43,150 nucleotides of DNA from Catajapyx aquilonaris. Taxonomy: Eukaryota. The notes under the pieces are model-generated. The model did no database searches, was not told the origin of the DNA, and worked only from the letters and a program-made list of their open reading frames with translations. The position numbers were made by a program, and so were the translations under genes. Within the stretch, counting starts at the first letter, position 1, and each line of letters opens with the position of its first letter. The stretch spans positions 1-43,150 of the forward strand of contig JYFJ02003345.1 of assembly GCA_000934665.2 (NCBI GenBank). The letters are read 5' to 3'. This document shows positions 34,401 to 39,966 of this stretch, piece by piece.

Positions 34401-37400
34401 GGTGCAACCTGCACTACGATACGATTTCTTGGAAATGGCAAGAGTCAAAAATTCTGCAAGTTTGGTTTTTGTAGATCGATTTGTAGCCCGCCGGAAGTGT
34501 CGGATGGTGAGAGAGTCTCTCTCATTGGATTCGAAACATAATTAGTTTCAAGTGTACACTAGGAACCTTGGATAGAGACCGTCTCCCTCAAACGTCACGG
34601 GGTGGCTCTTCTCGAAATAGACCACCCCCCGTTGGTACGTTATAAGTGTACTCGACGGTAAGAGAGCCTCAGTTGCGATGCCATTCAAGCGCTAGGAAGG
34701 TGGTCATATATATACCATCAGAGTGTCCAGTGATGCCTGTGGCCAAGTTGTTCTACAGCCCCGGGTTGGCCACGGTGTACTCGTCGCCCGGGGGAAGCTA
34801 CAGTGGGTATGGAGGAGGATACTCGTCGTCGTCGTCGTACTCGTCGTATGGGTACGGAGGGGGTACTACCAGCAGGAGTGGAGGGTTCAAACTTCTGCCG
34901 ACCATCAGCGAATCGTCGTACTCATCGATGCCTCGAAGGGCACCGATATACAACCCACAAAAGTACATGCAGAAGTACGACACCACTAGGTATGTCCAGC
35001 CGAGGTATGACCCGCCGAAGCCTGTGTACAGAGACACGTCTACTATCAGTCTGGTGCCTAAGCCGGACAGACCACGAAGGGAGGTCGGAGGTACGCTGAT
35101 TCGACGTGGAAGGCAGGTGGTCCGTATGCATACAAAGATACAGAAGGACGCATGGCAGGCTCCGGACGAAGAGACGCAACAGAAGTACATGGGATCCCAT
35201 GCGATGCAAATTGAAGCGTTGAAAGCCGAGGAAGACAACGAGGAACGTATCCAGGCAACACCATCGCCAATCAGCACCAGCAGCAACGATGACGGAATCA
35301 ACGGATGCGACGACTCCAGCGAGGAAAGCTCTACACTGAAATACGTGAAAGACCTTCTGGAGGAGATGAAGTACAACGAGATGGCATACAAAAGGAAGAG
35401 GCTGAAGAAGCACGTACCCAAGAAGAAGGACGCAGACGTCGAGACAGATTTGAAGAGGTCAGGTTCAGACGACTCTGGCATCGAAGTCAGCTCCGACACT
35501 TCAGCTCCGGCATCACCAAAGGATAAAGATTCCGGTACCGTATTTTGTTTAAAAAAAATGTCTGGGCATATACCAGTCGATTTTTTGATCTTACTATACA
35601 AAAGCGTGAGCGAAACGAGTGGTTTTCTAGTATTTTTTTAAAACAAATCTTGGGCCTACCTTGCACATAGGTCGATTTTTGGTCTTATGCACAGCGTACG
35701 TAGTGACGTAGGGAATTTCGGGATTCCGAGGCAACGGTCCAGGAGTTATGCGCACAGTCTCTTGAACGTGCCAATTTTCTTTTTTGTCGCCAACAAAGCG
35801 CCTCATTTGCAGCCGTCGCAGCGTACTGTTTCGGCGAGTAGGGAGTAATTAGCAAGAACTTGGAGAATTATTTTTTTGCGACCAAACACCTCGCTGTCAA
35901 TGCATCACACTTCCGTTCTTATTGGCAAAAAAAATGAATCCGGGTGTCTTATTTTTGACACCGTCGAAATTTATTTCAGTCTGTAATGTAAACTGCCACA
36001 GGAAGTGCGAGAGTTTCATGCCCAACCTGTGCGGAGTAAACCAGAAACTCTTGGCAGAGGCGTTGTCTTCGTTACGGAAAGGTACCTCTTGAAGACACAT
36101 ATGCAGCGTGTTTCTTTCTGGGGGGGAAAGAAGTTCTTCTCATCAACCCCTGTGTGTTTGAACAGGTGCCAGCGTGTCTTCCTCCTCGTCCTCGTCGACC
36201 TATTCGTCCGAAGCCAAATCGTGCTCTCCGCCCAAAGGCGACGACAACCGTGTGCCGTCACCGACCAGCAGCGACTCGGACGACGACCGTAGCAGCAACG
36301 ACCTGTCTCGACCCCAGCAACAACCTGTGTCACAGCCTCCGGTCAAGCACAGACCAAAGTTCCGAAAGTACACCATCGATGACTTCCAGTTCCTCAAGGT
36401 CCTTGGAAAAGGAAGTTTCGGTAAGGTCCTGCTGGCCGAGATGAAGGGCACCGACTCATACTATGCAATCAAGTGCCTGAAGAAGGACGTGGTGCTGGAG
36501 GACGACGACGTTGAGTGTACCATGATCGAGAGGAAGGTGCTGGCCTTAGGTACCAAGCAGCCCTTCCTCTGCCACCTCTTCTGCACCTTCCAAACAGAGG
36601 TAAGTCATAGCTCCAACAATACTGCCACAGGCCAACGAACGTTATTGTGGCTTTACCAATATATTGAGATAGCACAGTCTGATTTTTTAAAAGTGATCCT
36701 TCAGACAGCTATTTGTCCATCGACAGTCTCACCTGTTCTTTGTGATGGAGTACCTGAACGGAGGTGACCTCATGTTCCACATTCAGCAGAAGGGAAGGTT
36801 TGACCAGGAGCGGTCGAGGTTCTACGCAGCCGAGATTGTGTCCGGACTCAAGTTCCTCCACAAGAAAGGCATCGTGTTCAGGTAAAGACGAAAGTTTTGA
36901 AACCGACAGCGGCCGTCTATAAGGTGTGACTATTATTGTGTACAACCCAACAGGGACCTGAAACTGGACAACATATTGCTAGACTATGAGGGCCACATTC
37001 GCATTGCTGACTTCGGCATGTGCAAACTCCAGATTTATCTTGATCGCACGGCGGACACCTTCTGTGGCACGCCTGATTACATGGCCCCGGAAGTAAGAAC
37101 AAAAATTCAGGGATATCAAAATGTATATAACCACGTAATAACACAGCATGGGCCATTTTTTTGCCTGGTGTGAATAAATTTGTAGTTCCTCACTCACATA
37201 AAGGCACTCTAGAAACACGTAGACTAAGGTTGCACCACTCAAGACATGATCTGACAGGTTTGTACAATGTTAACCAATGTTAGCATTTAGAACCAATGTT
37301 AACCTTTGTTAACATTCAGAACAAATGTTAACACATGGTAACATTTGGAACAGATGTTAACCAATGTTAACATTTGGAACAGATGTTAACCAATGTTAAC

Positions 37401-39966: not shown

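Follow-up and report, generated by a model that had tools for sequence, protein, structure and literature searches.

Can a single gene supply two alternative catalytic cores for one protein kinase? The question is raised by a locus of Catajapyx aquilonaris (GenBank assembly GCA_000934665.2, contig JYFJ02003345.1), of which positions 1 to 43,150 of the forward strand, i.e., the whole stretch of 43,150 nucleotides (nt) analysed here, are referred to as the window. Judged by homology, the gene is an arthropod Pkc-delta homolog, a novel protein kinase C (PKC) of the delta type, and it contains two versions, termed exon A and exon B, of the exon encoding the active-site region. These are very probably old tandem duplicates of the catalytic-core exon that are spliced mutually exclusively, giving two enzyme versions from one gene. 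In the proposed mechanism, one internal exon is present in two copies; it spans the catalytic loop, β7-β8, the DFG motif, the activation loop (including the phospho-acceptor Thr) and the P+1/APE region. Inclusion of exon A would give the canonical pancrustacean enzyme; with exon B, the kinase would have the same regulatory domains, N-lobe and C-lobe, but a DMG motif and an activation loop like that of PKCs in general. Transcripts that include both or neither would meet an early stop and be subject to nonsense-mediated decay.

Exon A (36954-37092, + strand) and exon B (38093-38231, + strand) each comprise 139 nt. Both encode the catalytic loop, which is followed in exon A by DFG and a pancrustacean-type activation segment, and in exon B by DMG and an activation loop of the kind seen in PKCs generally. 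The constitutive exon that adjoins the pair upstream (36727-36881, + strand; RNA contig joints, Pfam Pkinase positions 66-122) ends on AG, the first two bases of the codon for the catalytic-loop Arg (Y/F-R-D), at the donor GTTCAG/GTAAAG (a slash marks the exon border). Both exons complete this codon, split after 36881, and their own last codon is complete, so that the downstream exon (from 38321) begins with a new one. Exon A is bordered by the acceptor AACAG/GGACCT and the donor CCGGAA/GTAAGA, exon B by the acceptor ACTAG/AGACTT and the donor CCTGAG/GTCAGG. The introns of the region, all on the + strand, are one of 72 nt before exon A (36882-36953, GT..AG, removed in the RNA contig), one of 1000 nt between A and B (37093-38092, with GT at 37093 and AG at 38091-38092) and one of 89 nt after exon B (38232-38320, donor GTCAGG). 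According to a script, one frame of exon A is open and the other two contain stops, and the same is true of exon B. The first-pass annotation of this DNA had described two paralogous, open exons of 139 nt in phase 2 to 0 with valid splice sites, and each of these properties was borne out by the sequence and the script.

The two exons are identical in 29 of 46 amino acids (30/47 when the split Arg is counted) and in 92 of 139 nt. Identity clusters in DLKLDN, G-MCK and an 11-residue stretch, while one ten-residue stretch agrees at 1/10 positions, as had been claimed for the clustered identity and the divergent activation loop. Approximately positions 122-169 of Pfam Pkinase are matched almost equally well by both exons (54.4 and 54.5 bits, both with E 1.5e-14), and a tblastn search with Daphnia Pkc-delta against the whole window matched this segment only at exons A and B. 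An in-frame stretch 5' of exon B extends its Pfam match to profile position 101; this stretch derives from the polypyrimidine tract, and the resemblance was treated as chance.

When the exons were joined by script, exon A alone or exon B alone left a frame that is open to the normal stop. The length of 139 nt is not a multiple of three, so transcripts with both or neither carry early stops, 10 codons into exon B in the former and 4 codons into the next exon in the latter; this is the frame shift that the first-pass annotation had predicted. As two or more exon junctions follow each of these stops, the corresponding transcripts would be expected to be removed by nonsense-mediated decay. Exclusivity is thus supported as being enforced by the frame at the protein level, and frame and decay constitute the only supported mechanism. 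Steric hindrance is unlikely, as the A-B intron is 1000 nt long here and about 315 nt long in a related locus (L003, below). All donors are GT of the U2 type, with no sign of U2/U12 incompatibility.

RNA data were available as the contigs of one public run (X1), which were aligned to 35800-40100. A contig of 3549 nt matches the window with 0 mismatches and contains five GT..AG joints, so it is derived from RNA. It represents the exon A form: the junctions 36881>36954 and 37092>38321, proposed earlier as a check, are both present, and all of 37093-38320 is spliced out. The same contig defines the constitutive exons of the kinase part, all on the + strand. The first one (36165-36599) encodes the linker and the start of the kinase domain; its piece of the contig has 0 mismatches and is joined to the next exon by 36599>36727 (GT..AG), and it is 86% identical to residues 424-508 of Daphnia Pkc-delta (tblastn). 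The exon downstream of the pair (38321-38509) encodes the end of the P+1 loop and helices F-G, corresponds to Pfam Pkinase 168-220 and is 86% identical to Daphnia. It is followed by an exon with the end of the kinase domain (38807-38947; joints 38509>38807 and 38947>39820) and by the last coding part (39820-39966), which extends from the C-terminal tail typical of AGC kinases to the stop, where the spliced translation ends, and is 89% identical to the Daphnia C-terminus (tblastn).

Other X1 pieces fall within exon B. They are short, cover the conserved 38202-38234 and are unlike the window on both sides, and an odd joint, 36758>38202 (side 25), lacks GT..AG. They were rejected as exon B transcripts, since such flanks are most simply explained by paralogous kinases. 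A further X1 contig (324 nt, depth 7.6, one inserted T) matches the - strand at 37615-37937, inside the A-B intron and opposite to the gene in orientation; its source could be unspliced pre-mRNA of either strand, an antisense transcript or a repeat expressed elsewhere.

Evidence for the use of exon B comes from relatives. The search with exon B returned no identical protein; its orthologs are Daphnia-like, 78-85% identical, and all of them contain DMG. This motif is present in 12/12 Daphnia-like B-type protein segments, in three DNA loci described below (L001-L003) and in the window. Among the 24 cluster members examined, 23 contain the segment, which is of the A type in 15 and of the B type in 8, with no member containing both. 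RefSeq includes five isoform pairs of equal length, each with one A and one B member differing only in the segment: Daphnia pulex X4/X3 (764 amino acids) and X5/X6 (735), D. magna X1/X2 (762), D. carinata X3/X5 (765) and X1/X2 of D. carinata LOC130695291 (894). In Logan, two proteins containing exon B (766 and 737 amino acids) are encoded by contigs of at most 3170 and 2692 nt, respectively, which leave no room for the introns of this gene.

A scan of metagenome contigs with a back-translated ten-residue pattern yielded the three loci. L003 is genomic and contains exon A, an intron of about 315 nt, exon B, an intron of about 109 nt and the downstream exon, while L001, also genomic, covers the last part of exon A followed by exon B and the downstream exon. 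L002 lacks introns: its upstream exon is joined to exon B, a further distinct B sequence, and this to the downstream exon, after which the sequence continues through the stop codon into a 3' tail. From this structure, L002 is taken as RNA-level evidence of a B isoform in a relative.

Exon B is clearly under purifying selection. According to Nei-Gojobori estimates, the comparison of L001 and L003 gives a synonymous rate (dS) of 0.74, a nonsynonymous rate (dN) of 0.028 and a ratio of 0.038; dN/dS is 0.078 for L002 and L003 and 0.112 for L001 and L002. Between the window and L001-L003, the proportion of synonymous differences (pS) is 0.74-0.94, i.e., saturated, and that of nonsynonymous differences (pN) is 0.14-0.15. 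Between L001 and L003, exon B is identical at 121/138 positions without gaps, as opposed to 136/314 in the A-B intron and 62/109 in the intron between B and the downstream exon, and the conservation starts and stops exactly at the exon B borders. The donor GTCAG[A/G] after exon B is common to both loci. Apart from the extended donors, the only conspicuous conserved elements of the intron that follows are a CTAAC branch-like site and a short TTGTCGATG block, the latter not being shared by the window. Within the window, exons A and B differ with pS 0.60 and pN 0.26, which indicates an old duplication, and their identical residues use different codons in 14/30 cases. The earlier claim of old divergence with selection on both copies is therefore upheld by these values and by the exon B ratios of 0.04-0.11, which are not near 1 and are accompanied by no disabling change in L001-L003. 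Taken together, the reading frame, the exon A RNA, the presence of exon B in relatives and dN/dS support the proposal that splicing provides one gene with two catalytic cores.

The enzymatic consequences depend on the residues that differ. Both exons retain RDLKLDN, D(F/M)G, TFCGTPDY and APE, and with them the catalytic Asp/Lys/Asn, the metal-binding Asp and the activation-loop Thr. The exons differ in β7-β8, at the DFG/DMG motif, over the first half of the activation loop and at the residue before APE (M versus I). The first-pass annotation had spoken of a swap of the whole catalytic loop and activation segment; the exon does span both, but DLKLDN is the same in A and B. Exon B resembles the general form found in non-arthropod delta and other PKCs (e.g., Nematostella, Porites, Octopus, hagfish and sturgeon), and exon A is the canonical pancrustacean exon, a derived form with respect to the general PKC segment. 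As the changes fall in the activation loop and, within DFG, at the position of the regulatory spine, the A and B isoforms may differ in their activation requirements and/or in substrate or partner preference.

The Met of exon B deserves particular attention, since a catalytically weak or inactive B isoform (pseudokinase-like, a scaffold or dominant-negative) is the alternative that survives best, although it is unlikely. The canonical Phe of DFG, which belongs to the regulatory spine, is present in exon A and not in exon B, Met is rare at this position (13 of 264 collected PKC-family segments, the other 251 having Phe), and the activation loop is changed as well. Nonetheless, exon B retains the catalytic Asp/Lys/Asn as well as the Mg-binding Asp, the activation-loop Thr and APE, and strong constraint over the whole exon fits an enzyme. 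DMG is also the native motif of CDK8/CDK19, which are described as active in 10.1101/2025.08.04.668337 and PMC9906319. Thus, the Met lowers the claim of activity without removing it, and the B isoform would be expected to be an active kinase given its complete set of catalytic residues and the occurrence of DMG in active CDK8/CDK19. A second case against inactivity is an unrelated PKC-like protein (P0023 from EukProt, 651 amino acids; C1, C2 and kinase domains) that has DMG in its only copy of the segment. The activation loop of this protein is 78% identical to exon B of the window, while the rest is not Pkc-delta-like, and its DMG may be a convergence.

Less probable is that exon B serves mainly as a regulatory poison exon, so that joint inclusion of A and B lowers Pkc-delta output and the B-only protein is incidental. 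The stop 10 codons into exon B after A would suit the logic of splicing coupled to nonsense-mediated decay. A poison exon, however, needs no preserved protein sequence, whereas exon B is constrained at nonsynonymous sites in precisely the frame in which it replaces A; moreover, B-containing sequences lack A in 8/8 cluster members and in L002.

Slightly weaker still is the possibility that exon B is a dead or decaying pseudo-exon whose frame and splice sites are leftovers. The replaced Phe of DFG, the faster change of exon B than of exon A and the missing exon B junctions in the one available run would agree with decay. Against it, exon B is open and retains DMG in the 12 Daphnia-like protein segments and the three DNA loci, its dN/dS of 0.04-0.11 contrasts with flanking introns that are 43-57% identical, and it occurs in intron-less contigs and in RefSeq isoforms. 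Furthermore, synonymous sites are saturated between the window and the Daphnia-like sequences, yet 78-85% of the residues are kept. An assembly or annotation artefact with a falsely duplicated stretch has a negligible probability: eight public PKC models do show such repeats (P0001-P0007 and P0009), but the copies in the window are only 66% identical in DNA and lie 1000 nt apart with proper splice sites, and the order of A and B recurs in two independent genomic contigs of other species (L001 and L003). Those eight models, from fish, a pseudoscorpion and other sources, were rejected as cases of alternative exons, since their segments or larger blocks are exactly repeated, as in artefacts; they dominate the top of short-exon searches.

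Several observations weigh against mutually exclusive splicing of two functional exons. The junctions 36881>38093 and 38231>38321, into and out of exon B, were not seen in the X1 contigs; as contigs drop minor forms, this silence is neutral rather than negative, and the use of exon B in this organism is argued from orthology. The RefSeq isoforms of Daphnia are automatic models. L002 could in principle be a processed retrocopy instead of a cDNA, although a retrocopy too would stem from a B-containing mRNA. Exon B is also the fastest-changing of the three exons compared between the window and these loci: its pN is about twice that of the downstream exon (about 0.08 against L001-L003), and that of exon A is 0.009 (against L003). 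Finally, an inverted-repeat search of 36600-38700 in this single sequence revealed no convincing docking/selector pairing. It returned 101 pairs, and 23 of the longest 25 are located in the region of a 29-nt tandem repeat array; one of 18 nt (I15, 37703-37758) forms a short hairpin elsewhere in the A-B intron, and one of 17 nt (82%) touches the exon A acceptor.

The array itself (37267-37649, no strand assigned; 13.3 copies with 91% matches in Tandem Repeats Finder) occupies much of the A-B intron and is built around GTTAAC palindromes. It is probably an insertion outside the mechanism, and the much shorter orthologous intron of L003 makes it look lineage-specific.

The identity of the gene follows from its kinase part and from its domain order. 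Spliced by script with the exon borders taken from RNA, the kinase part is 85.9% identical to D. pulex, 83-84% to termites and 81% to Folsomia and Artemia, all of these being Pkc-delta homologs, and 60-62% identical to the delta enzymes of Octopus and Nematostella. As the best matches are Pkc-delta homologs, orthology to Pkc-delta is indicated and not to epsilon/eta or classical PKCs. The label PKC delta given at first pass is hence appropriate in the sense of the arthropod homolog, but the gene is not a vertebrate PRKCD. The Pkc-delta proteins of insects, Collembola, Daphnia, Artemia and an isopod match exon A with 91-100% identity. In a kinase-domain tree of 26 rows from which the alternative segment was removed, the window falls outside the insect clade (91/95) and Collembola, in a polytomy with Daphnia, Artemia and the isopod. 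This placement was read as that of a pancrustacean outside the hexapods whose closest named sequences are those of Daphnia, without being a Daphnia itself.

Residues 33-764 of Daphnia Pkc-delta are colinear with the + strand from about 8905 to 39963 (tblastn). The upstream exons, encoding the N-terminal C2-like region and two C1 domains, lie at about 8905-9009, 9630-9890, 22178-22240, 28781-28942, 31324-31407 and 31493-31630 (+ strand); these coordinates are those of colinear tblastn matches to Daphnia residues 33-299, with approximate ends. The region aligned to residues 160-299, taken as the C1 domains by position, is 84-96% identical. Daphnia Pkc-delta proteins carry PF21494, PF00130, PF00069 and PF00433, while the direct Pfam scan for domain assignment in the window covered the kinase exons. 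The order that emerges from the colinear matches, i.e., C2-like, two C1, kinase and AGC tail, is that of delta-type PKC.

Two further stretches of the gene contain open frames. A G+C-richer stretch at 34646-36599 (+ strand) includes a frame of 331 amino acids (34646-35641) with no Pfam match, and its part at 35937-36599 is 52% identical to the N-terminal part of the long D. carinata LOC130695291 isoform, which lacks C1 domains; most likely, the stretch acts as an alternative 5' exon or promoter that yields a long form with the kinase only. On the - strand, 15242-16087 within a Pkc-delta intron holds a frame of 281 amino acids, with a local G+C of 0.50 over a kilobase and no Pfam match, which may be a remnant of a mobile element. 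The window holds 2 N bases.

How old is the pair, and how widely is it distributed? Among annotated proteins, the hexapods examined have exon A only: in seven hexapod clusters, all 50 members with the segment are of the A type. Of the proteins P0258-P0349, 91 contain the segment and 89 are of the A type, the other two originating from a sturgeon and a spider. Possibly, a B exon lies unannotated in insect introns. Three Artemia proteins are of the A type as well. In chelicerates, two non-identical tandem copies of the segment are found in the models from Nephila pilipes (GFS38010.1), Nymphon striatum (KAG1714342.1) and Haemaphysalis longicornis (KAH9364742.1). In the tick, the first copy has CKL.VY and YMAPE in common with exon A, and the second, as exon B does, belongs to the general type. 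These models join the copies via short linker peptides, which looks like read-through by a predictor forcing the frame. The activation-loop Thr of the first copies is replaced by Ala in the tick, Ser in the sea spider and Asn in the spider (P0010, P0121 and P0265), which would bar Thr phosphorylation at that site.

A tree of the segment (46 columns, 38 rows) recovers exon A as a clade (99/97) that takes in the first tick copy, itself very long-branched, and also groups the exon B sequences (96/90). It does not resolve the chelicerate copies or the place of B among the general PKCs, so a tree of 46 columns can neither date the duplication nor choose between one and several origins. On present sequences, the minimum age of the pair is the split of this organism from Daphnia. 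A more ambitious scenario can be put forward tentatively, with the odds rather against it: the duplication could predate the split of chelicerates and pancrustaceans, with A becoming the derived arthropod form (CKL.[IV]Y..YMAPE) and B keeping the ancestral metazoan loop; hexapods would then have lost B, and crustaceans of the Daphnia kind would have kept it while changing DFG to DMG. If true, few splice-controlled swaps of a kinase active site known so far would be as old, and the pair would offer a natural experiment on the roles of the activation loop and the DFG Phe in PKC.

No paper on alternative catalytic-core exons in delta-type PKC was found in a full-text literature search, the scope of which left out subscription papers and the supplements of exon catalogues. 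Two apparent matches (PMC11802352 and PMC4617343) turned out to be irrelevant. The impression at first pass that the arrangement had not been described therefore holds for papers, but not for annotation, as RefSeq lists it in the form of isoform pairs for three species of Daphnia. Events of this kind are well known and no new principle is involved; what exceeds the routine is the conserved DMG variant together with a possibly very old origin. Swaps of homologous exons are rare and usually ancient, and they are among the few alternative isoforms with clear functional weight, according to PMC8373072 and PMC9741552. Here the swapped piece is the heart of a signalling kinase, whose regulatory domains stay constant. 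The isoforms would form a clean natural pair for effects of the activation loop and the DFG Phe on how a delta-type PKC is activated, selects its substrates and binds inhibitors, and Daphnia, in which knock-outs of single exons and RNA-seq are feasible, is a tractable animal for their study. Annotators should also take warning, since several public gene models fuse both copies.

The closest known system is the orthologous gene of D. pulex, D. magna and D. carinata, annotated as 'putative protein kinase C delta type homolog', with the same pair in the same order (e.g., XP_046438684.1 versus XP_046438683.1). Its isoforms differ in the 46-residue segment; relative to the window, exon A is 98-100% and exon B 80% identical, and exon B has DMG in Daphnia as in the window. 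It differs in a kinase domain that is 86% identical and in the first half of the B activation loop, which reads RMDLNPQNPAS in Daphnia and otherwise in the window. The chelicerate Pkc-delta models (Nephila, Nymphon and Haemaphysalis) likewise contain the same segment twice, in tandem and non-identical, but both copies have DFG and the first ones lack the activation-loop Thr. In MAPK8 and MAPK14, the swapped piece is a C-lobe segment after the activation loop. Both resemble the present case as kinase genes with mutually exclusive homologous exons, an ancient and selected class of event, and are listed among substitutions derived from tandem exon duplication in PMC8373072; they belong to another kinase family, and in the window the exchanged exon comprises the catalytic loop together with DFG and all of the activation segment. 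The same source reports such a substitution for PRKCB (beta-I/beta-II), conserved in vertebrates and invertebrates, where it concerns the C-terminal arm of a classical PKC and not a delta type. CDK8 and CDK19 share with exon B the Met in place of the DFG Phe in a kinase described, in the sources cited above, as active; they are CMGC kinases under cyclin C and Mediator, in which DMG is constitutive, whereas in the Pkc-delta homolog of C. aquilonaris it would be an option of splicing.

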